Assembly: GCA_963825055.1 (NCBI GenBank)
Contig: CAWGSK010000012.1
Span: 96,001 to 160,000, forward strand
Reading direction: 5' to 3'
DNA: 64,000 nucleotides
Source of the DNA: an uncultured Gemmatimonadales bacterium
GTDB lineage: Bacteria > Gemmatimonadota > Gemmatimonadetes > Gemmatimonadales > GWC2-71-9
In this document: positions 26,007 through 39,788 of the stretch, piece after piece
How the letters are laid out: the number at the start of each line of letters is the position of its first letter
Position numbering within the stretch: the stretch's first letter is position 1
Made by a program: the position numbers and the translations under genes
The notes under the pieces: generated by a model
Told to the model about the DNA's origin: nothing
What the model saw: the letters and a program-made list of their open reading frames with translations, nothing else
Database searches by the model: none

Positions 26007-28420
26007 GCGCCGGTTTCGGCCGGGTGGCACTGCCGCTGCCCCTGGCCGAGCCCTATACCTACCGGGTCCCGCCCGGGCTCGCCGATCGCATTGTCCCTGG
26101 TGCGCGCGTGATTGTCCCGGTCCGCCGCCAGGAGATGGTCGGCATCGTGGTCGGCCTCGATCCCGGGGCCCCCGACCGCGAAGTCCGCGACATTCTCGCT
26201 GCCCCCGACCCCGAGCCCGCGCTTCCCCCTGCGCTCCTGGAGACTGCCGAATGGATGGCGGGCTACTACGGGGCTCCGCTCGGCCTGGCACTCCGCGCCA
26301 TGCTCCCCGCCGCCCTCTGGGGGCGGTCCCACGTGCGGGTGTACCTGGAACGCCCGGGCGCGGCGCCCGGCGGATTCTCGGCCGAGATTGTCCGGTGGCT
26401 TGAGCGGAAGGGCGGGGAGGCCACCTCGACTGCCATCGCGCGGGCGCTCCGGAAACCGGTCTGGGACGCCCTGGCGCGACTCGACCGCGTGGGGGCGGTC
26501 CGTCTCGAGGTCACGGGGGTGGACGCCGGGGCGCCCGGCGTGACCGAGCGCGTGCTGGCGCTGGTCGAACCGCGACCGTCCCTGGCCGAGCGGGAAGAAC
26601 TGTTCCGGCGCACGCGATCGCAGCGGCGCCTGTTCGAGACCCTGGAGGATCTCGGGGGCGGTGCACCCGTTCGCCACCTCCGTGACCAGCTCGGCTTTTC
26701 TGACCATCCTGTCCGGGCGCTCGTCGGCCGGGGGCTGGCTCGTCTCGAGGATGTCGAGCGCATTCGCGATCCTTTTGCGGACCTGCCCGGCAGCCCTCCC
26801 CCCGGCGCTCCCTCGCCCGCGCAACAGGAGGCGCTCACTTCGCTCGCGGCGGTGCCGCCGGGCGAGGCTGCGCTCCTGTTCGGCGTGACGGGGAGCGGCA
26901 AGACGTTTGTCTATCTGGAGGCGATCCGGGCCGCGCTGGCCCGGGGTCGTGGCGCCATCCTGCTGGTGCCGGAGATCAGCCTCACGCCACAGATCGTCGC
27001 CCGGGTTCGCGGCGCCTTCGGGGACGAGGTGGCGGTACTGCACAGCGGCCTGTCGGATGGCGAGCGCGCCGATGCGTGGCGCGTGCTGCGGCGGGGCGAG
27101 CGACGGGTCGCGGTTGGAGCGCGTTCCGCGATCTTCGCCCCCGTCCAGGACCTCGGCGTCATCGTGATCGACGAGGAGCACGAGGCCGGATACAAGAACG
27201 GGGAGACGCCGCGCTATCATGCGCGGGAGGTGGCCGGTGTGCGCGCCAGCCTGGAACACGCTTCCCTGATCCTGGGGAGCGCCACCCCATCGGCGGAAAC
27301 GATGGCGCGAGTGGATACCGGGGTGCCGGCCATTCGCCTCCCCGACCGGATCGGCGCCCGCCCGATGCCGGAAGTGGAGCTGGTGGACCTCCGTCACGCC
27401 GAACGGGTGGAGGGGACCCGCGCCGTGCCCTGGACTCGATCCCTGGACGAGGCCGTGACCACAACGCTCGCGCGCGGGGAGCAGGCACTCCTCCTGCTCA
27501 ACCGGCGCGGCTTCGCGACCTACCTCCAGTGCGAGGCTTGTGGTGAGGTCCGGGAATGTCCGCACTGCAGTATCTCGCTCACGGTGCATGACAGCCCTGC
27601 ACTCCTGCGTTGCCACTACTGCGGGTACACCGAGCGGATCCCGGATGCCTGCCTGGCGTGCGGCCATGCCGTGCAGCGGCACCGTGGCGTAGGCACACAG
27701 CAACTCGAGCGGGTGCTTGCCGAGCGATTCCCGTCGGCCCGACTCGCGCGGATGGACCTGGACACGACCAGCACGCGATGGTCGCACCACCGGATCCTGT
27801 CAGCGGTGGAACGGGGTGAGGTCGACCTGCTGCTCGGAACGCAGATGATTGCCAAGGGGCTCGATTTTCCGAACGTGACACTCGTGGGGGTCGTGGACGC
27901 CGATACGGGGCTTCACCTGCCCGATTTCCGGAGCGCGGAGCGTACCTTCCAGCTGCTGGCGCAGGTTGCCGGGCGCACCGGGCGCGGACCGAAGGGCGGA
28001 CGGGTGCTGATCCAGACCCGTACGCCGGGGCACCATGCCCTCCGCTGGGCGGCGCAGCATGATGTCGAGCGGTTCCTCGAGGACGAACTGGCCAGCCGGC
28101 GGGAGCCGCCATATCCGCCGTATCTCTCGCTCGTCAACGTCCTTGTGTCGGGCGTGGATGAGGGCGATGTCGGACGGGAGGCCGCGGAGGTCGCCGACTG
28201 GTTCCACGCGCTGGTGGCGGCGCGGGAACTGCCGGTGCAGGTTCTCGGTCCGGCCCCGTGCCCGATTGCCCGGATCAAGACCCGCTGGCGCTGGCACGTC
28301 CTGCTCAAGGGACCCTCCGAGGAGCTGGGCCGCGTCGTGCGGTACGCGGCATCACGAATCACGAAAGCGGGCCGGGACGTGCGGGTCGTTCTCGACCGCG
28401 ACCCGGTCTCGCTTCTCTAG
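26003..28420 (+). CDS. priA: Primosomal protein N' (replication restart helicase)
   Basis: GVTGSGKT, DEEH, four CxxC zinc motifs, GTQMIAKGLDFP. Confidence 0.96.
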   Translation: MSAGFGRVALPLPLAEPYTYRVPPGLADRIVPGARVIVPVRRQEMVGIVVGLDPGAPDREVRDILAAPDPEPALPPALLETAEWMAGYYGAPLGLALRAMLPAALWGRSHVRVYLERPGAAPGGFSAEIVRWLERKGGEATSTAIARALRKPVWDALARLDRVGAVRLEVTGVDAGAPGVTERVLALVEPRPSLAEREELFRRTRSQRRLFETLEDLGGGAPVRHLRDQLGFSDHPVRALVGRGLARLEDVERIRDPFADLPGSPPPGAPSPAQQEALTSLAAVPPGEAALLFGVTGSGKTFVYLEAIRAALARGRGAILLVPEISLTPQIVARVRGAFGDEVAVLHSGLSDGERADAWRVLRRGERRVAVGARSAIFAPVQDLGVIVIDEEHEAGYKNGETPRYHAREVAGVRASLEHASLILGSATPSAETMARVDTGVPAIRLPDRIGARPMPEVELVDLRHAERVEGTRAVPWTRSLDEAVTTTLARGEQALLLLNRRGFATYLQCEACGEVRECPHCSISLTVHDSPALLRCHYCGYTERIPDACLACGHAVQRHRGVGTQQLERVLAERFPSARLARMDLDTTSTRWSHHRILSAVERGEVDLLLGTQMIAKGLDFPNVTLVGVVDADTGLHLPDFRSAERTFQLLAQVAGRTGRGPKGGRVLIQTRTPGHHALRWAAQHDVERFLEDELASRREPPYPPYLSLVNVLVSGVDEGDVGREAAEVADWFHALVAARELPVQVLGPAPCPIARIKTRWRWHVLLKGPSEELGRVVRYAASRITKAGRDVRVVLDRDPVSLL

Positions 28421-28431
28421 CGGAAGGCGTC

Positions 28432-29412
28432 ATGGCGACTGGCAGGGACGAGCTCCTGGAGCAGGCGCGCGCGGCGCGGCAGCGCACCTCGGACCGCCTG
28501 CGGCATACCCCGCTCGAAGCGAGCCCGGGGCTCAGCGAACACTGCGGCGTCCCGGTCTATCTCAAGCTGGAGAACCTGCAGGTGACCGGGGCGTTCAAGG
28601 CCAGGGGCCCACTCAACCTCCTGCTGCGCCTGCCGCCGGGCGAGCGCGGGCGCGGGAGTCGTAGCGCCGACCGCAGGAAACCATGGACTCGGCCTGGCGT
28701 GGGCCGCCGCTCAGGTGGGAACGACGGCGCACATCTTCCTGCCGCGGAGCGCGGATCCCGACAAGGTACGCCGCCTGCGCGAGCTCGGGGCACGGCTCAC
28801 GTTCTGCGACGACTACGAAGCCGCGCACCATGCCGCCGTCGCGGCGGCTGCTTCCACGGGCGCCCGGTACGTATCCCCCTACAACGATCCCGACGTGATC
28901 GCCGCGGACGGCGTGGTCGGGCTCGAGATCCATGACGACCTGCCGGAGGTCCGCTGCGTCATTTCCTGCCTGGGCGGTGGCGGTCTTGTCGTCGGGCATC
29001 GCCGCCGTCCTCAAGGCGCTGGATCCAGCCATCGTGGTGAAGGCGGTAGAAGCGTCGGCGAGCCCGACGTTCTCGACCTGGCGCCGGGAGGGTGCGCCGT
29101 GCCACGTGGAACTCGGTCCGACCATCGCGGAAGGGCTTGGGGGGTACGTGGAGCCGGACAGCGCTGACATGGCCCCTCATCGCGCGGGATGTGGATGAGG
29201 TCCTGGCCGTTTCCGACGGGGAACTGGTCTCCGCCATGCGCTGGCTCGCGGAGCGGCACCGGCTGATTGTCGAGCCCTCCGGCGCGGCCGCGGTGGCGGC
29301 CCTCCTCCGGGCCCCCTCGCCGGCGGCCGGCCCCACCGTCGCGACGGTCACCGGTGGCAATGTCGGCTGGCCCCGTTTCCTGGGCCTGGTTGCCTCTGAC
29401 GCAGTATCGTAG
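28432..29412 (+). pseudogene. Threonine/serine dehydratase family (PLP) gene split by three +1 frameshifts
   Basis: KLENLQVTGAFK.RG, AGNHG, GGGGL, TIAEGL and EPSGAA lie in successive frames; true pseudogene or sequencing error. Confidence 0.8.
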
Positions 29413-29651: not shown

Positions 29652-30602
29652 ATGGCCTCAACCGTCTCCGGCGCTGCGGAGTCACGGGCATTTGTCCTTC
29701 AGAGCCCCTCTCAGGCCCGCATTGCCTTCGAGGCGCCGGCTGGCTGGGGCGAACGGCTCTTCCGGGCCCTTCTGCTGCTCGCCTGGATCGGCATCGCGTC
29801 CACCTGCCTGCTCTACGGTCTCGATTACTACCGCCTGCCCCTCGCGGCGCGGGCGGCGGCTCCGCTGCACGACCTGCTCAAGCCCTCGGGCCTGATCGGG
29901 CAGGGGTACGGTATCGTCGGCACCCTGTTCATCATCGCCGGCGTCGGCAGCTACTCGATTCGCAAGCGCATCCCCTGGCTCCGCAATCTGGGGACGCTGC
30001 ACCACTGGCTCCAGGTGCACGTGTTCCTGTGCACCATCGGTCCGTTCCTGGTCCTGCTGCACACGACCTTCCGTTTCGGCGGCATCGTGTCCATCGCGTT
30101 CTGGAGCATGACGGCGGTCGCCATCAGCGGTCTGTTCGGCCGCTTCGTGTACGCGCACATCCCCCGCACGATCCATGGCCAGTCCGTTACGCTGGACGCG
30201 GTCCGGGCGGCGCAGGAGGACCTTCAGCGCCGTATACGCGAGGCCTGGTCTGGCGAGGCCGATGTGCTCGCACTGCTCAAGCGCCCTCGCCGGGCGCCGC
30301 CGCGGAGCGTGCTCGTGGCCCTGGTGCTGGCCATGCGCTATGATCTGTCCCGCCGCTTCACGTTACGGCGGTTGCGGCACCGGCTCGACCGGAGCCGCCT
30401 GCCGGCCAATATGCAGAGCGAACTCCTGACGGCCGTGCGGGCGGAACTCGCGGTTGAGCAACAGATGCTGCTCCTGCAGCCGTTCCAGCGCCTGTTCCAC
30501 TGGTGGCACGTGTTCCACCTCCCGCTGACCGGGGTGATGTTCGTCGTCCTCACGGTGCATGTCGCGGTGGCGATCATGTTCGGGTACACCTGGATCTTCT
30601 AG
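29652..30602 (+). CDS. Inner-membrane protein with His-containing TM segments (putative heme b / quinone interaction)
   Basis: Multiple TM helices; WLQVHVFL, LLHTT, WWHVFHLPL, VHVAV. Confidence 0.7.
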   Translation: MASTVSGAAESRAFVLQSPSQARIAFEAPAGWGERLFRALLLLAWIGIASTCLLYGLDYYRLPLAARAAAPLHDLLKPSGLIGQGYGIVGTLFIIAGVGSYSIRKRIPWLRNLGTLHHWLQVHVFLCTIGPFLVLLHTTFRFGGIVSIAFWSMTAVAISGLFGRFVYAHIPRTIHGQSVTLDAVRAAQEDLQRRIREAWSGEADVLALLKRPRRAPPRSVLVALVLAMRYDLSRRFTLRRLRHRLDRSRLPANMQSELLTAVRAELAVEQQMLLLQPFQRLFHWWHVFHLPLTGVMFVVLTVHVAVAIMFGYTWIF

Positions 30603-32099
30603 GTGAACTCTCCGCTGCGCGGCCCCGGTGTCGTCCGGCTCCTGGTCGTCCTCCTCTGCTTTGTGGCGCTCCTGCCGCGGGGCGCGACGGCACAGATCAT
30701 CTCGCCCGGCAAGCTTGCGCAGGACCATGCGGCGCTGGAGGGGATCCGGAACTGCACGCAGTGTCACCAGCTCCGGCAGCGGGGGATCGACAATGCGAAG
30801 TGCCTCGAGTGCCACGCTCCGCTGAAGCGACGGATCGCCGAGCGGAAGGGGCTGCACGCCAGGTCGAGCGAGCGGAACTGTGCCGACTGCCACCGCGACC
30901 ACTTCGGGCAGGAGTTCGCCCTGGTCACCTTCGACACGGCCAAGTTCGACCACACCGATGCCGGATTCGAACTGGAAGGAGCGCACCATGATCTCGGCTG
31001 CCGGGACTGCCACGAACCGGGCCTGGTGCATGCGCCTGACGTCCGGGCATTTGCCTCTCGCCACGGCGGGCTCGACCGCACCTTCCTCGGCCTCGGGACG
31101 ACCTGCCGGACCTGCCACGAGTCGGATGACCCGCACGACGACCAGTTCGGCGACCGTGCCTGCACCGCCTGCCACACCCAGCAGGACTGGACTCCCGCAT
31201 CAGGCTTCGACCACGACCGCGCGAAGTACCGCCTCACCGGCGCTCACCGGAAGGTGGATTGCGCCGGCTGCCACCGCGACCAGGGCCGTGATCCCAGGCA
31301 TCCACGCGTGCGCTACACCGGCCTGGCCTCTGGTGCCTGCAGCGACTGCCACACCGACCCGCATGGCGGAGCGATGAGGGGCGCGTGCGCCACCTGTCAC
31401 GCCACCACCGGCTGGCGGCAGCTCGATCGCTCGGGGTTCGAGGGCCGGTTTGACCACAGCAGGACGGGCTTCATCCTGCGGGGCGCGCATGCGGGAGCCG
31501 ACTGCCGGGCGTGTCACACTCCCGCACGGGCGCCCCGGCCGGGCGTGCGGATCCGCTTCGTGGCCGGGGGTCGCTCGTCAACGTACCCGAAGCCTGTGGC
31601 GCGGGACTGCCTGAGCTGCCACGTGGACCGTCACCAGGGTGCCTTCAAGGATGTGGAGGGCGGGGCGGTGTGCACCAACTGCCATGGCGAGCGGAGCTGG
31701 CTGCCGTCGTCCTTCGATCTCGAGCGCCACAACCGGCCCGGTGGCTACGCCCTCACGGGCGCGCATCGCGCGGTCGCCTGCCAGGATTGCCACGTCCGGT
31801 CCGCGGACTCCACGGCGTGGACATGGCACATCACGGGGCAGGCGTGCGAGGACTGTCACGGCGCCCGTGAGCCGCATGCCGGCCAGTTTGCCGGACAGGC
31901 GTGCGCCGACTGCCACACGACAGCCACGTTCGCCATCGCCGGCTTCGACCACTCGAAGACGCGATATCCGCTCGACGGCGCGCACGTGAAGCTGCCCTGC
32001 GCCGACTGCCACCGGCAGGAGACGACGGCGGATGGGAAGACGTTCCGCCGCTACACGCCCCTCGGCACGGCCTGCCGGGACTGTCATGGAGGGACCTGA
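30603..32099 (+). CDS. Multiheme c-type cytochrome (17 CxxCH)
   Basis: Signal peptide (ATA|Q); 17 CxxCH counted; repeated FDH..F.L.GAH segments. Confidence 0.92.
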   Translation: MNSPLRGPGVVRLLVVLLCFVALLPRGATAQIISPGKLAQDHAALEGIRNCTQCHQLRQRGIDNAKCLECHAPLKRRIAERKGLHARSSERNCADCHRDHFGQEFALVTFDTAKFDHTDAGFELEGAHHDLGCRDCHEPGLVHAPDVRAFASRHGGLDRTFLGLGTTCRTCHESDDPHDDQFGDRACTACHTQQDWTPASGFDHDRAKYRLTGAHRKVDCAGCHRDQGRDPRHPRVRYTGLASGACSDCHTDPHGGAMRGACATCHATTGWRQLDRSGFEGRFDHSRTGFILRGAHAGADCRACHTPARAPRPGVRIRFVAGGRSSTYPKPVARDCLSCHVDRHQGAFKDVEGGAVCTNCHGERSWLPSSFDLERHNRPGGYALTGAHRAVACQDCHVRSADSTAWTWHITGQACEDCHGAREPHAGQFAGQACADCHTTATFAIAGFDHSKTRYPLDGAHVKLPCADCHRQETTADGKTFRRYTPLGTACRDCHGGT

Positions 32100-32100
32100 G

Positions 32101-33627
32101 ATGCGTCGAGCCCTGCTGTCGGTCCTTCTCGCGCTGCCGCTCGCGGCCGGCGCCCTCATGGCCCAGGCCGGTACGCCGAGCCCGCACGGCGACATGCGCG
32201 CGAACATCGACTGCAGTGCCTGTCACACACCACTGGTGTGGAAGCCGGTCAAGGCGGCCATGGAGTTCGACCATGCGCGTCAGGCTCAGTTCCCATTGAC
32301 CGGCCGGCATGCGGCGGTTCCCTGTGCCCGATGCCACCTGGACGCGCGTTTCGACGAGCCGAAGATCGCGCCGGACCAGTGTCGGGACTGCCACCTGGAC
32401 GTGCATCGCGGCCGCCTGCCCGACTGCGCCTCCTGCCACACCACGACGACCTTCCAGAGCGTGCCTGCCATCCAGGTGCACGCCCGCACGAGTTTCCCCC
32501 TCACCGGTGCACATCTCCAGGTGCCCTGCGAAAGTTGCCACACGGATGAGCGGCACGGGGCATACGCCCCGGTGGACGGGGATTGCGTCAGCTGCCACCT
32601 GCCCGATTACCAGGGGGCGCAGACGGTCGACCACGTCGCCGCCGGCTTCCCGACCACCTGCCGCCAGTGCCACTCGACGGTGGCCTGGACCGGCGGGGTG
32701 CCGTTTGACCACGTGTCGGTCTCGGGCGGATTCGTCCTGGCGGGCGCCCACGGCCAGCTCCGCTGCGCAAGCTGCCACGTCCCGCCGTCAGGCATGCTCA
32801 AGTTCGTGCCCCCGCCATCCAGTGCGAATGACTGCGTCGCCTGTCACCAGCAGGACTACAACCGACAGCACGCCGGCAGCGGGTTCCCCACGACCTGCGC
32901 CGACTGCCACAACGTGAATGCTTGGGACGATGCCCACTTCGACCACACGGCGGTCAGCGGCGGCTTTGCGCTGCTTGGTGCCCACCAGCGCACCAGCTGC
33001 GATGGCTGTCACATCCCGCCGTCGAATCAGCTCCGGTTCACGCCCTCGGGGCCGAATGACTGTATCGCCTGCCACCAGCAGGACTTCACCAATCAGCACG
33101 GCACGAGCGGCATTCCAACCACGTGCCTTGATTGTCATACCGTGGATACCTGGTCGGGCGCCACGTTCGATCACGCAGCCGTCGCGAACGGCTATGCCCT
33201 GGTCGGGGCCCACCAGCAGACCCCGTGCTCGGGTTGCCACATTCCCCCCGACAACCAGCTGCGGTTCACGCCGAGCAGCCAGAATGACTGCGCCGCGTGC
33301 CACCAGTCCGACTACGATGCCCAGCACGCCGGCAGCGGTTTCCCGCTGACCTGCCTCACCTGTCACACGGTGGACAGCTGGACCGGCGGGACGTTCACGA
33401 ATCATGACGCCCAGTTCTTCCCGATCTACTCCGGGAAACACAACGGGCAATGGGGCAACGACTGCTCGACCTGCCACAACGTCGCGGGCAACTACACCGC
33501 ATTTACGTGTCTCCAGTGCCACACGCACAACCAGACCGAGACGGATGGTCATCACAGCGGAATCTCGGGGTATGCCTATACCAGCACGGCCTGCTACTCG
33601 TGCCATGCGAACGGGAGGGTCAATTGA
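32101..33627 (+). CDS. Multiheme c-type cytochrome (19 CxxCH)
   Basis: Signal peptide from ATG 32101; 19 CxxCH counted; three-heme repeats. Confidence 0.92.
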   Translation: MRRALLSVLLALPLAAGALMAQAGTPSPHGDMRANIDCSACHTPLVWKPVKAAMEFDHARQAQFPLTGRHAAVPCARCHLDARFDEPKIAPDQCRDCHLDVHRGRLPDCASCHTTTTFQSVPAIQVHARTSFPLTGAHLQVPCESCHTDERHGAYAPVDGDCVSCHLPDYQGAQTVDHVAAGFPTTCRQCHSTVAWTGGVPFDHVSVSGGFVLAGAHGQLRCASCHVPPSGMLKFVPPPSSANDCVACHQQDYNRQHAGSGFPTTCADCHNVNAWDDAHFDHTAVSGGFALLGAHQRTSCDGCHIPPSNQLRFTPSGPNDCIACHQQDFTNQHGTSGIPTTCLDCHTVDTWSGATFDHAAVANGYALVGAHQQTPCSGCHIPPDNQLRFTPSSQNDCAACHQSDYDAQHAGSGFPLTCLTCHTVDSWTGGTFTNHDAQFFPIYSGKHNGQWGNDCSTCHNVAGNYTAFTCLQCHTHNQTETDGHHSGISGYAYTSTACYSCHANGRVN

Positions 33628-35177
33628 GGCGACCCCTCATTCCGGCGCTGCTGCTCGCCCTGCTGCCCGCGTCGCTCGGGGCCCAGGACAGTACCGTGAC
33701 GGCGACCGTCACGCAGATTGCCGGACAGGACGTCTACATCAACGCGGGAAGTGATGCCGGCCTTCACGTGAGTGACACCGTGACCGTGCGACGCGCGGCC
33801 GCCGGTCCTGTCCTGGGGCGGATGACGGTCTCCGCCGCAACCGGCAGCAGGGCGCTGCTCGGCTTTCTCGACGCACCGTTCCCGCTCACCCGTGGCGATG
33901 GGCTGTTCCTCGGGATTCACGGCGGGGTGGCCCCGGCGACCACGCCGGCCCCGGCACCTCCGCGAGTCGCGGCCACGTCTCGGCCCCGGACGGTGGCTCC
34001 GGGCGGGACCGTGGTTCACGGCCGTCTGCTGCTGGACGTCGATGGGAACCGCTCGACCACGCGCGGGTTCGGGTCGGACCCCGAGACCACGAGTCGGGAC
34101 TATGCGACCCCCTCGGCCGGGCTCCGGCTCCAGGTCACCCGGCTGCCGGGTAACATGGAGTTCAGCACGGACGTCCGTGCCCGCTACCGCTACACCAGCA
34201 ACGACATCATCACACCCGCCACCGCCGTCCGGGTGTACGAGGCCAGCCTGACCCGGCGGCTCCCCGGGTCGGGATTCCTCGTGCGTGCCGGCCGGTTCTA
34301 TGACCCGTACGAGTATTTCAGCGGCTACTGGGACGGCCTGATGGTGCACGCCGGCGATGAGGGCTTCGGCGTCGCCGCGCTGGCGGGCTTCGAGCCCGAC
34401 CGCGGCAACGAGGGGTTCAGCACCGACTACCCGAAGGCCAGCCTGGTGGCCCATGCGAGCCGGATCCGCGGGCGCTCCGGGATCCGGACCGATGTGTCGG
34501 TGCACCGCGTCATGCCGCGGGATTCCTCTCCCGACCATACATTCGCCGGCTGGTCGCAGGTCGCATGGACCGGCCGGCTTTCCTTCAGCCACAACCTGCA
34601 GGTGGACCGGAACCCGGCGAGCGGGAAATGGAACGTCACCCGCCTGCTGACCCGCCTGACCCTCCCGGTGGGCTCCTCGCTCACGCTGCGCGGCGGCTAT
34701 TCCATCCAGCAGCCCTACCGGCTGGGCACGACGTTCGGCGCCATCCCCTTCCGTCGGGATCGCGCCACGGCCGGGTTCGACGTCCGCCTGCCGGGAGCGA
34801 GCATCGGGGCAGACGTGAGCAAGGGCCACCAGGAGGGACTGGACGATACCTGGAGCTACTCTGGATCGGTGTACCGGTCACCGCGGGGCCAGCACGGCGT
34901 CGGGATCGGACTCACCGGTACCCGCTGGACGGAGACGGGGAGCAACGGCGTGCTGCTCGCACCGTCCTTGGACCGGCAGTTTGGACACTTCACGGTCCGG
35001 GGAGGGTACCAGTATTCCCGCACCGAGTTCGGCTCCCTCGTCCTCACTACCCATGCCGCCGACCTGGGCGGCACCGTTCCCCTGGGTGGGCGAACCGGGC
35101 TGACCCTCCGGGCCCGGTGGCAGAGCGGACAGCTCTCGAGCACCGGAGTGTACGCCGGCTTCTGGTACGGGTTCTGA
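33624..35177 (+). CDS. Outer-membrane beta-barrel (porin-like) protein
   Basis: TTG start after GGGAGGG; signal peptide SLGA|Q; alternating amphipathic strands; C-terminal YAGFWYGF. Confidence 0.75.
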   Translation: MRRPLIPALLLALLPASLGAQDSTVTATVTQIAGQDVYINAGSDAGLHVSDTVTVRRAAAGPVLGRMTVSAATGSRALLGFLDAPFPLTRGDGLFLGIHGGVAPATTPAPAPPRVAATSRPRTVAPGGTVVHGRLLLDVDGNRSTTRGFGSDPETTSRDYATPSAGLRLQVTRLPGNMEFSTDVRARYRYTSNDIITPATAVRVYEASLTRRLPGSGFLVRAGRFYDPYEYFSGYWDGLMVHAGDEGFGVAALAGFEPDRGNEGFSTDYPKASLVAHASRIRGRSGIRTDVSVHRVMPRDSSPDHTFAGWSQVAWTGRLSFSHNLQVDRNPASGKWNVTRLLTRLTLPVGSSLTLRGGYSIQQPYRLGTTFGAIPFRRDRATAGFDVRLPGASIGADVSKGHQEGLDDTWSYSGSVYRSPRGQHGVGIGLTGTRWTETGSNGVLLAPSLDRQFGHFTVRGGYQYSRTEFGSLVLTTHAADLGGTVPLGGRTGLTLRARWQSGQLSSTGVYAGFWYGF

Positions 35178-36490
35178 TGGACCAGGATACCCTGATTATC
35201 GGCGGTACGGCTGCGGGCCTCGTGCTCGTGGCCATCGCGCCGTTCTACCTCCGTACCCGGCGGCTCGAGCGTCGGGCGACACGCGCGGCCGTGGAGGCCG
35301 AACGCTACGGCCTGCACGAACCGGTGAGCCTGCATCCCGTGGTGCATGCCGGCGCGTGTATCGGTACCGGCGCCTGCATCGATGTCTGCCCGGAAGGGGA
35401 TGTCCTTGGACTGGTGCATGGGCAGGCGCGCCCCATTGCGCCGGCACGCTGCGTGGGACACGGTCTCTGCGAACGGGCCTGTCCCGTCGAGGCAATCCAG
35501 CTCGTGTTCGGGACCGCCACGCGCGGCGTCGAACTGCCACGGGTGCGGGCCGATTTCCAGACCAACGTGCCGGGTCTCTATGTGATCGGTGAGCTGGGGG
35601 GCATGGGCCTCATCCGCAATGCCTTCGAACAGGGGCGGCAGTGCGTCGACGGCATCGCGCGCGCGCCAAGGCCCGGCGGGGAGGACCTTGAAGTCCTGAT
35701 CGTGGGAGCGGGTCCCGCCGGACTCTCCGCCTCCCTCGCGTGCCGGGAACGGGGGCTGCGCTTTGCCACCATCGAGCGGGAGGATATCGGCGGGACCGTG
35801 CGCTCCTATCCCCGAAAGAAGGTCGTCATGACCCGGCCCTTCGACATCCCGGGCTGGGGGAAGATCCCCGCCTCCGAGGTGCCCAAGGAGCGCCTGATGG
35901 AGATCTGGAGCGAGGTGGTGGAGCGCACGGGCCTCAGCGTTACGACAGGGACGACCGTTCAGTCAGTGACCCGCCAGGATGACGGGCGGTTCACGGTGGA
36001 GACCTCGGGCGGCACCTGGCGGGCGCACCGGGTGGTGCTGGCGATCGGCCGGCGCGGCATTCCGCGCAAGCTCGGCGTACCCGGCGAGGAGCTGCCGAAG
36101 GTTTCCTACTCCCTCCTGGAGCCCGAAGCGTGGCAGGGCGACCGCATTGTCGTGGTCGGGGGCGGTGATTCCGCGGTGGAGGCGGCCCTGGCCCTGGCGG
36201 ACCAGCCGGGGAACCAGGTGACGGTCTCCTACCGGCGCGACCGCTTCAACCGGCTCAAGCCGGGCAACCTCGACCGCGTGGAGCACGCCATCAGCGATGG
36301 CACGGTCACGGTGCTCTGGGAAAGCCGGCTCGAGGCCATCGCCGCGGACCGGGTGACGTGGCAGGACAAGGCCGGTGCCCGGCACGAACTCCCGAACGAC
36401 CGCGTGTTCATATTTGCCGGCGGCGAACTCCCCAGCGGGTTCCTGAAGGACTGCGGAATCATCGTGGATACGAAGTTCGGGGAGGCGTGA
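35177..36490 (+). CDS. Membrane-anchored Fe-S / FAD-NAD(P)H oxidoreductase (thioredoxin-reductase-like)
   Basis: N-terminal TM; two ferredoxin-like motifs; VGAGPAG, AIGRRG, VVGGGDSA, SYRR. Confidence 0.85.
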   Translation: MDQDTLIIGGTAAGLVLVAIAPFYLRTRRLERRATRAAVEAERYGLHEPVSLHPVVHAGACIGTGACIDVCPEGDVLGLVHGQARPIAPARCVGHGLCERACPVEAIQLVFGTATRGVELPRVRADFQTNVPGLYVIGELGGMGLIRNAFEQGRQCVDGIARAPRPGGEDLEVLIVGAGPAGLSASLACRERGLRFATIEREDIGGTVRSYPRKKVVMTRPFDIPGWGKIPASEVPKERLMEIWSEVVERTGLSVTTGTTVQSVTRQDDGRFTVETSGGTWRAHRVVLAIGRRGIPRKLGVPGEELPKVSYSLLEPEAWQGDRIVVVGGGDSAVEAALALADQPGNQVTVSYRRDRFNRLKPGNLDRVEHAISDGTVTVLWESRLEAIAADRVTWQDKAGARHELPNDRVFIFAGGELPSGFLKDCGIIVDTKFGEA

Positions 36491-36494
36491 AGGC

Positions 36495-36547
36495 AGTCAC
36501 TAGCCACCAGCCACTAGTCACTAGTCACTAATCACTAGTCACTAATC
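36495..36547. repeat. Heptamer tandem repeat (AGTCACT)n
   Basis: About 7 degenerate copies between convergent genes. Confidence 0.85.
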
Positions 36548-38617
36548 CCGTACCCCACCTCCACCCCCACCCACACCGTCCGCCCCGGCCCGGGCTCGAA
36601 CACCCGGCCGCCAAAACCGTTTGGCGCGATCGAGGCGACGTAGTCCCGGTCAAAGAGGTTGTGCACTCCGGCAAAGGGCATCACCCGGGCTCCGCGCGAG
36701 TCGAGGCGCCAGGACATGCGGACGCCCGTGATGCCGGCGCCCCACCCATCGGAGGCAAGTGTGTTGTCGTCGTCGGCCGCCAGGCCGGACTGCATGGCGT
36801 GCGTGACGCCCAGCTCGAGGCGCTTCGAGCGGCCGCACGGTGAGGTCGAGCGTCAGGGCGTGCGTCGGCACACCCGGCAGGGTATTCCCGTCCAGCGTGT
36901 CGACCACACCGCCGATGTCCAGGCGATAGCGGGCGAACCGCGCCCGGTTCCAGCTGTAGGAGGCCCGCGCCTCCCAGCGCGGCCGCGCCGCGACCATCCC
37001 CAGTTCCACTCCGTCGGCATGCAGCGATCCGGCGTTGGTGAAGTACGCCCGTCCACCGGATTCCTCGAACGGCACCAGCGCGTCCCTGGTCCGGCCGAGG
37101 TAGCCGGTCGCCTCGTAGCTGAGCCAGCGCAGGGGGCGCCCCCGGACGCCGGCCTCCCACGTGACCGAGCGCTCGGGGCCCAGCTCCCCATTGAATCCGC
37201 CCGCGCCGCCCGGCTGGTTGGCAAGTTCCGTGGTGGTGGGCGTCTCGAAGGCGGTACCTGCCCGGACCCACGGCACCAGGGCGCGCGCGAGGTCCAGGCT
37301 CGCCCCGAGGCTCGCGCTCAGCGCGCCAAGGGTTCGGTGACCGCCGTCGTCGCCGTCGTCCAGGAAATGGTCCGTCACGCCGAAGGCGGTGCGGTCGTAT
37401 CGGAGCACGGCGTCCACCCTCCAGCCCGTCCACGGGTGAAGGTCCAGGGTGGTGAAGATGCCGAGGGCGGAGGTGGTCTCCCGCTGGTCGACCAGGAGAC
37501 TGTCGGTGGGAACGCCGCCGGTGCTCGCGTGATTGGTACGGTCGTCCCGCTGTCGCTGCCAGTCCACGCCGCCACCGAGGACGGTTCCCGCGCCGAGGAC
37601 GCGGTGGCCGGCCACCCGCACGCCGCCCACGAGTCGCGAAATCCCGACCAGCACATTGATGGGCAGCGGGTTGGCGAGGTCGCGGTGGAGGCCGAACACG
37701 GTGACGTCCGCCACGGCCTGATGCCGGTCGTTCCAGGACAGGGTGAATGCCGCCTGCTGCTGCGTCACGTCCTTGCCGGCATTGGTCGCGATGTTGCGCG
37801 CGGCCGCGGAATCACGGTTGAGGGCGAGTTCCCCGGTGGTGAGCGCCCCCGGGTTGTCGCCGCGCGGAGCGTCCACTACCGCCACCAGCGCGCGCAGACT
37901 TACCCGCGGCGACGCCTGCCACGCCGCGGAGGCCTGGAGCCTGGTCGCCTCCGACCTGCTGTGCTGCCGGAAGCCCCGGCTCGTAGCGCGTGATACGCCC
38001 AGTGCCACCTCCCCCTGCGCTCCCCTCGCGCCGACGAACAGTTGTGATCGCCAGAGGTCACCCGACCCGTACTGGCTGCGGAGCGAGGCCTCGTCGGGCG
38101 CCGCCGGCCTCCTGGTGGAGAGATTGATCACGCCGCCCGCCGCGTTGCCATAGAGGCCGCCGGTCCCGCCGCGGAGTACCTCGACGTTGCCGAGGAGGCC
38201 CCAGTCGATGTTGTTGAGCTGGCTCTGGCCATCGGGAAGGGTCTGGGGGACGCCGTCGAGCAGGATGGTCACGCCGCGAACGCCGAAGGTGGCCCGGGCA
38301 CCCGCGCCGCGAATCACTATGCGCTGGTCCAGGGAGGGGTTGAAGCGGTTGGAGACGATGATGCCGGGCAGCAGGGGCAGGACTTCGTCCGGACCCAGGC
38401 CGGGCCGGGACCGCATCGCCGCGGCGGCATCGAGCGTGGAGGCGGCCTGTGGGACGCGAAGCAGCGGGGCGGGCGTTCGGGTGATGGCGATGGAGTCCAG
38501 CATGATCGCCATGCTGTCACCCGGGACCTGGGCGACGGTCGCCGGGGGCCGGCCCGCGATGAGTGCCACCAGGAGGCAGGCAGGTCGCCAGGAGCGCAAT
38601 GCCCGTATGGGATTCAT
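36535..38617 (-). CDS. TonB-dependent receptor, frameshifted at about 36825
   Basis: IRG..LLDGVP, VEVLRG..LYGNAAGGVINL plug; NLFDRDY..PGPGRT C-terminus in a shifted frame. Confidence 0.88.
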
Positions 38618-38693
38618 GGTGCCGTAAGGTAGTATGACGCTGCCCGGTTCCAGCTTGAACCACCTCTGGCACCCGGGTACCTTTCGCCCCGCC

Positions 38694-39788
38694 ATGACCC
38701 CTGCTTCACGCTACGCCGCTCCCGACTTCACCGCGCCGCCGTTCGGCGGCGCGCCCGAGGCCCGGTTCGAGCCCGCCCCCGCCGACGGGGTGATGCCCGA
38801 GGGCTTCTTCTCCACCTCCAATCTTCCGACCTACGCGCAGGTGGACGGGGCGTGGGTCATGCCGGGTCGGCCCCGGATGGACTGCGTGCTGGTGCGGCGT
38901 CCCGCCGGTCTGGAGACGGTCGAACCGCGCCGGGTGCGAGCCGGCGAGCCGGTCGCCATGGGACTCGCCGAGGATGGCTCGGAGGGGATCTTCGTCCATG
39001 CGGCGGCGTTCCTGGCCGGCGCGAAGGGCCATGCAGAGTTCCAGTTCATGTCCACGGAGGTGAGCCGCGAGCGGCCCGTGAACTACGAGGAACTCGCCCG
39101 GCGCCTCGTGGAGGAGCGCGATGCCGGCGGCAATCTCGTGTGGGTCATCGGGCCGGCCCTGGTGCACAGCCGGGCCCGGCGGGACATGGAGTGGTTCATC
39201 GCCAATGGCTTCGTGCAGGCCGTGCTCGCGGGCAATGCCGTCGCCGTGCACGACATCGAAGCGGCCATCTTCGGCACGACCCTGGGCATGAGCAATACCG
39301 GACAGCCCACTTCGGGCGGCCACGGGCTCCACATGCGCGCGATCAACCAGGTGCGGGCTGCCGGTTCCATCGAGGCCGCCGTCGCGTCCGGGCTGGTCTC
39401 GAGCGGGATCATGCATGCGCTCGTGACGCACGAGGTGCCCTTCGTGCTCGCCGGATCGATCCGGGACGATGGTCCGCTGCCTGGTGTCATCCGGGACGTG
39501 CTCGAGGCACAGGACGCCATGCGGGAGTATACCGTGCAGGCCACGGGCGCCGTGCTCGTGGCCAGCGCGCTCCACGCGATCGCGGTGGGCAACATGCTGC
39601 CCGCGTTTCACACGCGGCGGGGGACGCCGGAGCCGCTGATGACCATCTGCGTCGACCAGACCGAGTTCGTGGTGAACAAGCTCAAGGACCGGGGCACCCA
39701 CCAGGCCTATGGGGTTGTCACCAACGCGCAGGACTTCATGCACGTGCTCCGCTCCTACGTGTCGCAGTGTTCCGGCGCGACGCGGTGA
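38694..39788 (+). CDS. LOR/SDH-domain (TIGR00300-like) protein, putative ornithine cyclodeaminase
   Basis: APADGV.PEGFFSTSN, GNAVAVHDIE, LAGSIRDDGPLP, LHAIAVGN, KLKDRG. Confidence 0.75.
   Translation: MTPASRYAAPDFTAPPFGGAPEARFEPAPADGVMPEGFFSTSNLPTYAQVDGAWVMPGRPRMDCVLVRRPAGLETVEPRRVRAGEPVAMGLAEDGSEGIFVHAAAFLAGAKGHAEFQFMSTEVSRERPVNYEELARRLVEERDAGGNLVWVIGPALVHSRARRDMEWFIANGFVQAVLAGNAVAVHDIEAAIFGTTLGMSNTGQPTSGGHGLHMRAINQVRAAGSIEAAVASGLVSSGIMHALVTHEVPFVLAGSIRDDGPLPGVIRDVLEAQDAMREYTVQATGAVLVASALHAIAVGNMLPAFHTRRGTPEPLMTICVDQTEFVVNKLKDRGTHQAYGVVTNAQDFMHVLRSYVSQCSGATR

Follow-up and report, generated by a model that had tools for sequence, protein, structure and literature searches.

A candidate electron conduit from NADPH to the cell exterior, encoded by five adjacent genes in Gemmatimonadota and Bacteroidota

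The porin-cytochrome conduits of Gram-negative bacteria are quinol-fed in the papers cited here, and those of the MtrCAB type are supplied by separate quinol oxidases (PMC6295460). A five-gene locus of an uncultured Gemmatimonadales bacterium, located in a 64,000-nucleotide stretch of contig CAWGSK010000012.1 (the window), raises the question of whether such a conduit could be fed directly with cytoplasmic NADPH. If so, this would be a different bioenergetic design, which costs membrane potential and yields a stronger reductant, and extracellular electron transfer would extend to a sizeable share of Gemmatimonadota and Bacteroidota. On balance, we consider it probable that the five products make up a self-contained wire across the envelope, through which NADPH electrons leave the cell without entering the quinone pool.

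The locus and its relatives

The five genes, A to E, stand in tandem on the forward strand at positions 29652..36490 of the window, and their coordinates and junctions agree with the earlier note, which had described neighbours as abutting or overlapping:

29652-30602, + strand: gene A, ATG start, 316 aa, 12 His, no CxxCH
30603-32099, + strand: gene B, GTG start abutting the A stop, 17 CxxCH
32101-33627, + strand: gene C, ATG start 1 nt past the B stop, GGAGG upstream, 19 CxxCH
33624-35177, + strand: gene D, TTG start overlapping the C stop, GGGAGG upstream, 517 aa, C-terminal Phe
35177-36490, + strand: gene E, TGATG overlap with D, 437 aa, N-terminal transmembrane (TM) segment, Fer4 and Pyr_redox_3 domains
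36495..36544, no strand: seven copies of AGTCACT, a 7-bp tandem repeat directly past the E stop, linked to the system by position only

Contig C24 of the same assembly carries a second, strain-like copy of A to E, and the excess of synonymous over non-synonymous codon differences between the copies in all five genes (A 41/17, B 47/33, C 118/33, D 55/23, E 9/0) indicates that these are not chance reading frames. The copy is 95.6-99.4% identical over 29 kb, housekeeping flanks included, and is unlikely to be a true gene duplication, as similar redundancy occurs on other contigs and contamination stands at 6%. The GC content of the region resembles that of its flanks, a scan of the locus for promoters and terminators gave nothing above chance, and fragments on contigs of two soil DNA runs together account for most of the operon; the sequencing runs listed include no RNA dataset. 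The flanking genes for PriA, an epimerase, a dehydratase, a TonB receptor and Fur were considered as parts of the system and rejected, being absent among the recurrent neighbours.

The co-occurrence of the five genes elsewhere, on which the earlier note had made its proposal depend, is seen across phyla, in Gemmatimonadota and Bacteroidota and in at least five gene orders, including some with a divergent E. At the 66 informative loci (those of 101 with at least 7 kb downstream of A, three distant porin-less plasmid loci being excluded), the neighbourhood of A contains E at 65, D at 63 and the full set of B, D and E at 61, counts that are not independent since the loci share descent. At two loci A and E stand by themselves, homologues of B and D being encoded at other sites of the genome, and one (L025) has A and cytochromes with no D or E nearby; all 35 A-positive genomes among G001-G150 are also D-positive. 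In the loci surveyed, gene D comes after a C-type or unclassified multiheme gene, the exception being a locus (L068) where the order assigned here places E in between, and in another (L093) D and C are co-duplicated. Carriers make up 63 of 301 sampled Gemmatimonadota genomes and 31 of 301 Bacteroidota genomes at E<1e-60 (38 with any match). In a tree of the A protein, built by a quick method only from 41 of 69 rows, Bacteroidota and Ignavibacteria cluster together and Gemmatimonadota fall into two subfamilies.

The flavoenzyme and the inner-membrane protein

The product of E begins with a TM anchor followed by basic residues and continues into a ferredoxin domain with the motifs of two clusters, CxxTxxC and CxxHxxC. 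Conservation among 69 homologues (His95 in 68, Cys64 in 14) goes with one of the two Fe-S clusters probably being His-ligated. Residues 171-435 align with positions 4-270 of YpdA/FNR, whereas the FAD segment from the C-terminus of lipoamide dehydrogenase has its counterpart ahead of them, at residues 123-162; as judged from these alignments, the FAD/NADP(H) module of E has a TrxR/FNR fold in circularly permuted form and is placed in the cytoplasm. Its best sequence matches are YpdA/Bdr and TrxR-type ferredoxin-NADP+ reductases (E 1.6e-23 to 6e-19), with which it shares the absence of a redox CxxC (0 of 69 homologues) and from which it differs in being permuted, membrane-anchored and ferredoxin-fused; against the YpdA model it scores 158.7, with a cut-off of 339.9. 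The missing CxxC between the FAD and NADPH domains likewise separates the family from thioredoxin reductases. Together with the TrxR fold and basic residues suited to the 2'-phosphate of NADP (R353 in 68, R359 in 67 and K361 in 63 of the 69), it would place E among TrxR-type ferredoxin-NADP+ reductases. E also contains SYR..R.K and GGGDSA, which we take to be NADP-type motifs.

The AF2 model of A (pLDDT 81) has five helices and an Arg-rich cytoplasmic helical insert of ~120 aa. The sequence carries W119x3H123x13H137, S159GxxG163 and W285x3H289x13H303; the motif histidines are invariant in 45 close homologues, and of 69 wider homologues 68 have two WX3HX13H and all 69 have SGxxG. The two HX13H heme-ligand pairs sit on TM3 and TM5, and the loops follow a positive-inside bias. 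In this model, A is predicted to be a trans-membrane diheme b protein, with H123/H289 on the cytoplasmic and H137/H303 on the periplasmic side. The profile PF01794 matches none of the 69 members, and weak matches were obtained to DUF4405 (16/69) and Ni_hydr_CYTB (7/69). Foldseek against the PDB gave no match to A at E<=0.001, profile and sequence searches of solved structures returned nothing significant for A, C or D, and an ESM Atlas search with A and D retrieved unnamed clusters only. Structural comparison matched A at medium scores, none of them diagnostic, to CybB (Z 8.7), FdnI (7.2) and SpNOX (7.1); the first two are quinone-linked, an observation that counts against an NADPH wire.

Several arrangements suggest that E feeds A. 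In a natural fusion, P0279, an E sequence (44% identity, 433 aa aligned) runs in frame into an A homologue that retains both HX13H motifs, although its three short loci display no B, C or D context, a point against the wire. Independently, on contig L111, E reads on into an apparent first helix of A, and in P0280-P0282 A is fused to Fer4 domains. On plasmids of Methylophaga and Alteromonas, distant homologues of A are preceded by a FAD_binding_6/NAD_binding_1/Fer2 reductase unrelated to E and followed by a 7-heme cytochrome. A complex prediction for E and A, with paired alignments, two hemes and two Fe-S clusters, scored 0.12 against a mark of 0.32 and gives no answer either way.

These data bear on an unlikely alternative, a quinone-coupled conduit of the PCC3 type, a porin-cytochrome c cluster described by He et al. 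in 2017 (PMC5566968), in a Gallionellaceae pangenome (PMC9900912) and in bioRxiv 2025.02.27.639646. In such a conduit A would be a quinol oxidase or quinone reductase, E an accessory NAD(P)H dehydrogenase with a parallel feed into A or the quinone pool, and the wire respiratory or bidirectional. He et al. model the inner-membrane protein (IMP) of PCC3 as quinone-active, and the available descriptions of the four-gene clusters include no flavoprotein ('flavo' and 'FAD' have 0 occurrences in the main text of that paper), which suggests that the core is able to work without E. The quinone-linked folds nearest to the A diheme point the same way, as does the binding of ubiquinone by MsrQ of the NOX/STEAP superfamily. 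MsrQ is also a precedent for the proposed feed: its electrons come from a cytosolic NADH oxidoreductase, and its describers argue against ubiquinone as the donor (PMC12525009). Against a quinone feed stand the tight linkage of E to A through varied gene orders, their fusion, and the convergent pairing of distant A homologues with a second reductase family, all of which speak for a feed from E to A.

The cytochromes and the barrel

Both cytochromes are of the c type: B carries 17 hemes and a Sec-type signal, and C carries 19 hemes and varies in length across homologues. The three-heme repeats delimited by FDH..L.GAH, which the earlier note had pointed out, hold up on counting: four of five segments in B and four of five in C contain exactly three hemes, the last segment holding two in B and six in C. 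Seventeen non-motif histidines are conserved in an alignment of 31 17-heme B homologues, 19 in all six 19-heme C homologues and 13 in the 13-heme ones. One conserved distal His per heme argues against an open catalytic heme and, with the three-heme repeats, makes B and C look like pure wires.

The two proteins differ in composition and in evolutionary behaviour. Homologues of B mostly have 17, 20 or 23 hemes, constant within lineages, and the N-terminal ~250 aa of B, half of the protein, match the 7-heme cytochromes of the porin-less plasmid IMP modules; B is predicted to be the periplasm-spanning wire. Homologues of C range from about 10 to 52 hemes. Lys plus Arg make up 5.0% of C vs 11.5% of B, T/S/A/G 35% vs 31% and T/S/N 23% vs 16%, and C is Thr/Ser/Asn-rich past heme 6, with 26.7 aa per heme (29.3 in B). 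Composition and gene order are the pointers by which C is predicted to be barrel-associated and to project outward. Neither cytochrome has a lipobox, an absence that counts against retention of C at the surface.

D comprises a signal peptide, a beta domain of ~78 aa, a Pro/Ala linker and a predicted barrel ending in Phe (a C-terminal Phe is found in 111 of 128 family members). Its AF2 model (pLDDT 91) is a closed barrel of 22 strands, counted by DSSP with two broken strands joined, and of about 40 A C-alpha diameter by barrel geometry; the earlier proposal, which would have fallen had D not been a beta-barrel able to house a cytochrome, is not refuted by this model. The fold matches are large outer-membrane barrels: TonB-dependent transporters (Z 21.6), an usher (18.1) and MtrB (16.6; rmsd 4.5 A over 329 residues). 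That D is structurally closest to transporter barrels, and smaller than MtrB, counts against a conduit. No Pfam or NCBIfam family, including the TonB-receptor and plug families, matches D or its 11 homologues searched, so that D shares the 22-strand barrel of the transporters and not their sequence families. The N-terminal domain gives a weak FlgT_C-like signal only; AMIN or duplicated N-domains in homologues suggest that it is periplasmic and not an obligatory plug.

The transporter-like barrel with its small N-domain is also what one would expect if E, A and B supplied reductant inside the periplasm, for repairing or activating enzymes or for reducing metal imported via D, with D serving as a secretion pore or gated transporter and C as a periplasmic capacitor. 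The absence of a lipobox from B and C and the existence of porin-less modules of reductase, IMP and 7-heme cytochrome fit that scheme, which we nonetheless judge improbable: D follows and co-duplicates with C-type genes, C ranges over about 10-52 hemes with charge falling in its repeats, and D matches no TonB-receptor or plug family.

Known conduits and the direction of electron flow

The porin-cytochrome core, judged from its sequences, resembles the published PCC3 cluster, whose own function is predicted. A is, like the PCC3 IMP, a ~300-aa five-TM protein with two WX3HX13H and SGxxG, and it adjoins a gene for an outer-membrane beta-barrel, predicted to have 22 strands in D and reported with 22 TM in Leptothrix cholodnii. 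Both systems combine a periplasmic multiheme cytochrome (MHC) of near-fixed heme number (PCC3 median 21; B 17) with a highly variable second one (C 19), and B and C show the PCC3 features of 22-39 aa per heme, internal repeats and a small-residue-rich second MHC. The published clusters are Proteobacterial, with four genes and a quinone-active IMP, and differ in this from the present ones, where E is a near-constant fifth gene. The earlier suggestion of a relation to PCC3/PCC4 thus stands for motifs and architecture, as a likeness by description and not by direct sequence comparison. PCC4 has an HX13H IMP next to a redox protein and a cytochrome (He et al. 2017), but three periplasmic cytochromes (4, 5 and 10 hemes) and none extracellular, in contrast to the two here (17 and 19 hemes). 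The MHC-IMP-redox clusters in Supplementary Table 6 of the same paper are mostly porin-less, unlike A to E; the plasmid modules whose 7-heme cytochromes match the N-terminal half of B share their build.

MtrCAB/MtoAB and the OmbB-OmaB-OmcB system of Geobacter likewise combine a barrel with multiheme cytochromes across the outer membrane. They differ in that our cluster has no lipoprotein cytochrome; MtrB_PioB (PF11854) has no match anywhere in the genome, and B scores 57.6 bits against the DmsE/MtrA model TIGR03508 (cut-off 192.2), which sets it apart from decaheme MtrA/DmsE. On the inner-membrane side, MsrQ and SpNOX resemble A as membrane b-heme proteins through which a cytosolic NAD(P)H flavoenzyme sends electrons outward, except that A is missed by PF01794, its donor would be a TrxR-fold Fe-S flavoprotein and its acceptor a long c-heme chain. 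A Lentimicrobium porin cluster with 61 and 20 hemes (PMC13013709) fits, by description, the pattern of a 20-heme B and a giant C. Karst genomes have an FNR gene near 7 of 11 porin-cytochrome clusters with ~20-strand porins (PMC13264449), and the large decaheme cytochrome described there suggests that this may be another family; the available text of both papers describes no path from an IMP and flavoprotein. The porin-cytochrome core is therefore already in print and the FNR association mentioned once; what sets the present clusters apart is E as a near-constant fifth gene beside a PCC3-like core in Gemmatimonadota and Bacteroidota. Our literature search found nothing on porin-cytochrome conduits fed by an NADPH flavoprotein or ferric reductase, on Bacteroidota conduits of this kind, or on Emticicia multiheme cytochromes.

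Besides the observed genes, motifs, conservation, co-occurrence and fusion, the proposed path involves predicted folds and topology, and contacts, cofactors, a direction and an acceptor that we infer. NADPH would reduce the FAD of E, whose two Fe-S clusters would pass electrons one at a time to the heme b on the cytoplasmic face of A; as a NOX/ferric-reductase-type diheme, A would take them through the inner membrane to the N-terminal 7-heme part of B, docked on A, while the remainder of B crosses the periplasm. C, held in or at the barrel D, could extend outward by its expandable three-heme repeats and deliver electrons to Fe/Mn oxides, humics, conductive particles or partner cells. Transfer from cytoplasm to periplasm is aided by the membrane potential and spends it, which points to an overflow valve or reductant source and not to energy-conserving respiration. 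In favour of the wire, the host genome encodes cytochrome maturation families of the Ccm type and the beta subunit of a transhydrogenase; against it, several heme-copper oxidases leave the host without an obvious need for an external sink.

On thermodynamic grounds the direction is very likely outward. The reverse, a reduction of NADP+ via the wire with electrons taken up from Fe(II), a cathode or another external donor, we hold to be very improbable. FNR-fold enzymes are reversible, and PCC3 was defined in iron oxidisers and is drawn as an uptake route in the available text; by standard bioenergetics, inward flow would run uphill against the membrane potential, and only donors with a potential far below that of the NADP+/NADPH couple could drive it. 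The named hosts belong mostly to heterotroph lineages.

A broader generalization of the outward NADPH wire seems plausible to us but falls a little short of probable: a quinone-independent extracellular electron transfer widespread among FCB bacteria that joins a two-component NADPH-oxidase-like module (permuted FNR-ferredoxin plus diheme b) to an extendable chain of covalently bound hemes, some 70 at most, and a barrel nameless in databases, in which the membrane potential would drive very low-potential electrons out and heterotrophs or fermenters would dump NADPH on minerals, conductive particles or partner cells. In a cultured strain, Emticicia oligotrophica DSM 17448, plasmid pEMTOL02 bears the complete cluster (EMTOL_RS21090-21110) behind ccsA, which makes the PCC3 class testable.

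The five genes and their predicted products

The cluster is a run of five genes that are translationally coupled at their junctions in the window. The earlier note had described such a run, with a 17-heme and a 19-heme cytochrome, and the reading frames and CxxCH counts bear it out.

29652-30602, + strand: gene A, membrane protein (ORF reading of the window)
30603-32099, + strand: gene B, multiheme cytochrome, 17 CxxCH
32101-33627, + strand: gene C, multiheme cytochrome, 19 CxxCH
33624-35177, + strand: gene D, predicted barrel, TTG start
35177-36490, + strand: gene E, anchored Fe-S/FAD enzyme (ORF reading of the window)

Sequence searches of Pfam, NCBIfam and PDB gave no family name for A, and fold searches with its AlphaFold model returned non-diagnostic matches. 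The protein carries the motifs W119x3H123x13H137, S159GxxG163 and W285x3H289x13H303; two WX3HX13H motifs occur in 68 of 69 homologues and SGxxG in all 69. In excerpts of He et al. 2017 (PMC5566968), the same signature is given for the inner-membrane proteins (IMPs) of the porin-cytochrome classes PCC3 and PCC4 and likened to the ferric-reductase/NOX domain. In the model, five long helices cross the membrane, the fourth and fifth being separated by a helical insert. By charge bias the insert lies in the cytoplasm, as do loop 2 and the N-terminus, so that each face of the membrane has one pair of His, the predicted geometry of a trans-membrane diheme.

The earlier note's TM-anchored Fe-S/FAD oxidoreductase is confirmed by the domain matches of E, which consists of a TM helix, a basic stretch from which a cytoplasmic C-terminal part is predicted, a two-cluster ferredoxin and a flavin module. 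The second ligand positions of the ferredoxin are occupied by Thr64 (Cys in 14 of 69 homologues) and His95 (68 of 69). Residues 171-435 match residues 4-270 of YpdA/FNR and residues 123-162 the C-terminal FAD segment of lipoamide dehydrogenase, so that the module is circularly permuted. The TrxR CxxC is absent from all 69 homologues and R353, R359 and K361 are conserved, which we take to be the expected pattern for an NADP(H):ferredoxin-type enzyme.

Both cytochromes are composed of three-heme repeats starting FDH..L.G.H, as had been noticed earlier (FDH..L.GAH). Exactly 17 non-motif histidines are conserved in 31 17-heme B proteins; C has 19 invariant histidines in six 19-heme proteins and 13 that are at least 90% conserved in 13 13-heme proteins. 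Because this supplies one distal His per heme, all hemes of B and C would be bis-His transfer hemes, without a catalytic site. Heme number is lineage-fixed in B (17, 20 or 23 in 75 of 84 complete ORFs) and runs from about 10 to 52 among C homologues, mostly in steps of three. Since residues 1-250 of B match 7-heme cytochromes downstream of distant A homologues on plasmids, its N-terminal end may dock on A. C is poor in Lys/Arg and, past heme 6, rich in Thr/Ser/Asn; across loci it is the usual gene immediately before D. The window's B and C proteins have no lipobox.

Mature D, modelled from a 128-sequence alignment (pLDDT 91), has a 78-residue beta domain joined through a disordered linker to a barrel with 22 strands counted, which upholds its earlier designation as a beta-barrel. 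Structure comparison places D among large outer-membrane barrels, with a best Z of 21.6 for TonB-dependent transporters, 18.1 for ushers and 16.6 for MtrB, a ranking that mirrors barrel size rather than function. MtrB has 26 strands; by barrel geometry the C-alpha diameter of D is about 40 A, versus 47 A for 26 strands, and the modelled lumen is plausibly wide enough to take hemes one after another in a row. An additional N-terminal AMIN domain in four homologues and a duplicated small domain in another argue that the N-terminal small domain would be periplasmic. In one locus (L093:9169-18449) the C-D pair occurs twice, and one of the two D proteins has its N-domain in duplicate; another (L102:8170-15025) has a second C gene downstream of E. 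The D homologue P0235 continues into a TM and Fer4 segment like the N-terminal part of E; this is probably read-through at a frameshift and not a true fusion.

Conservation, gene order and partners

A scan of GTDB contigs found at least 576 A relatives. The best 80 of these were used as loci, with 20 long-contig loci from 63 A-positive among 301 Gemmatimonadota genomes and four plasmid loci. Three of the plasmid loci, distant and porin-less, were left out; of the remaining 101, linkage was counted in the 66 whose sequence extends 7 kb or more past A. E lies near A in 65 of the 66 and D in 63, and 61 have all three of B, D and E; these counts, like those by genome, are non-independent because the genomes are kin. 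The co-occurrence of the five genes elsewhere, on which the earlier note had depended, is thus borne out, and the feature is real and conserved. Gene orders include A-B-C-D-E, A-E-B-C-D, E-A-B-C-D and divergent E/A-B-C-D. Among the exceptions, the genomes of two loci (L070, L076) carry B and D homologues at other sites, and two loci (L073, L097) have fragmented cytochrome genes; in L025, D and E are not near A, and an Ignavibacteria query found no D in its genome. With a stricter first-look survey of A, all 35 A-positive genomes among 150 (G001-G150) were D-positive, one genome had a full D without detected A and three had weak D N-domain matches. In Bacteroidota, A matches occur in 38 of 301 genomes (31 at E<1e-60); the Emticicia oligotrophica DSM 17448 plasmid has the order ccsA-A-E-23 heme-40 heme-D. 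A conserved membrane-anchored TPR-like gene of about 200 aa, which may help cytochrome maturation or assembly, was flagged in 26 of the 66 loci, a few of these being more distant other TPR genes; it often follows A in both phyla (e.g. L011:10915-11559, L030:10837-11463) and is missing from the window's cluster.

A search for longer proteins returned four. In one (P0279), E and an A homologue form a single protein, and on an independent contig (L111) E reads on into the apparent first helix of A. In the others (P0280-P0282) an A homologue follows a large N-terminal part that contains Fer4/PF13247 domains; they lack the FAD module, and their Fe-S-plus-IMP make-up resembles that of PCC4 subgroup II. 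In Methylophaga and Alteromonas, distant homologues of A are preceded by an unrelated FAD/NAD/2Fe-2S reductase, matching the IMP-cytochrome-redox triplets in Table S6 of PMC5566968. Given P0279, the Fer4 fusions and this second reductase family, the A superfamily recruits cytoplasmic flavin/Fe-S partners repeatedly; MsrQ, in excerpts of PMC12525009, likewise pairs with a cytoplasmic flavin partner. On an Alteromonas macleodii plasmid (L084:6132-18663), a porin-less reductase-IMP-7-heme triplet lies directly upstream of NiFe hydrogenase genes, hinting at an H2-to-NAD(P) link.

Proposed electron path, likely direction and class

In the proposed path, electrons would pass within E from NADPH to FAD, to the first Fe-S cluster and to the His-ligated one, then to the inner and outer hemes b of A, to B, to C within D and to an external acceptor. 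On these gene products we consider such an NADPH-to-exterior path rather probable, and a quinone-coupled conduit in place of the direct NADPH feed unlikely. By standard bioenergetics, outward transfer takes electrons from the negative to the positive side of the membrane, so that the membrane potential draws them along and is discharged by their passage, and inward transfer would call for donors of far lower potential than the NADP couple; electrons therefore probably leave the cell by this route. Export from NADPH would conserve no energy directly; the cell would gain by balancing its redox state or by supplying a strong reductant. The host genome encodes heme-copper oxidases, Ccm-type proteins and PntB, a gene set that would fit an aerobic or facultative heterotroph. 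According to excerpts of PMC13013709, a Lentimicrobium genome that carries a porin cluster of 61+20 hemes came only from cultures with conductive particles, and the authors report a close relative in particle-free controls; as an analogy, the case is only suggestive for the function of A-E.

Compared by described features and not by direct homology, the cluster shows all PCC3 features examined and may work like a PCC3-type conduit; it is neither MtrCAB, a known porin-cytochrome conduit, nor PCC4. What sets it apart is the NADP-type flavoprotein E, which is tightly linked and in one case fused. The comparison with published systems drew on PMC5566968, PMC9900912, bioRxiv 2025.02.27.639646, PMC7399161, PMC6344600, PMC5317091, PMC6295460, PMC13264449, PMC13013709 and PMC12525009. 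Literature searches, in a base with most subscription journals outside its coverage, gave no match for an NADPH-fed porin-cytochrome path besides a one-line remark on FNR with porin-cytochrome clusters in a karst study (PMC13264449); Fig. S4 of PMC5566968, on PCC4 redox-gene domain architecture, may already include a flavoprotein.

Strain copy and surroundings

Among the matches listed, the nearest homologues with a name come from Gemmatimonadota. Nine contigs of the assembly (C21, C24-C28, C31-C33) duplicate long stretches of C12 (the window's contig), C13 or C9, to which they are mostly 94-99.6% identical; the assembly therefore contains co-binned strain variants, and the cluster copy on C24 is most simply a co-binned strain. 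Between the two copies, synonymous exceed non-synonymous codon differences in all five genes, and A-E have no internal stops.

Upstream, a threonine/serine dehydratase-like gene (28258-29412, + strand) is broken across reading frames, probably by assembly error, since contigs of the soil DNA run X1 differ there by single-base indels (28653 and 28991/28994). Outside the window, at C12:22195-28565 (- strand), lies another multiheme cluster, unrelated to this one (7-heme, 18-heme, barrel-like ORF, 16-heme); a similar one directly adjoins the five-gene module in L085, L086 and L088. Downstream, a TonB-dependent receptor gene (36535-38695, - strand) converges with the cluster, its C-terminal part seemingly a separate ORF (36535-36795) through a probable frameshift. 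Between the converging stops, a 7-bp tandem repeat (AGTCACT x7, 36495-36544) has very high local depth in X1, suggesting many similar copies within the sample.
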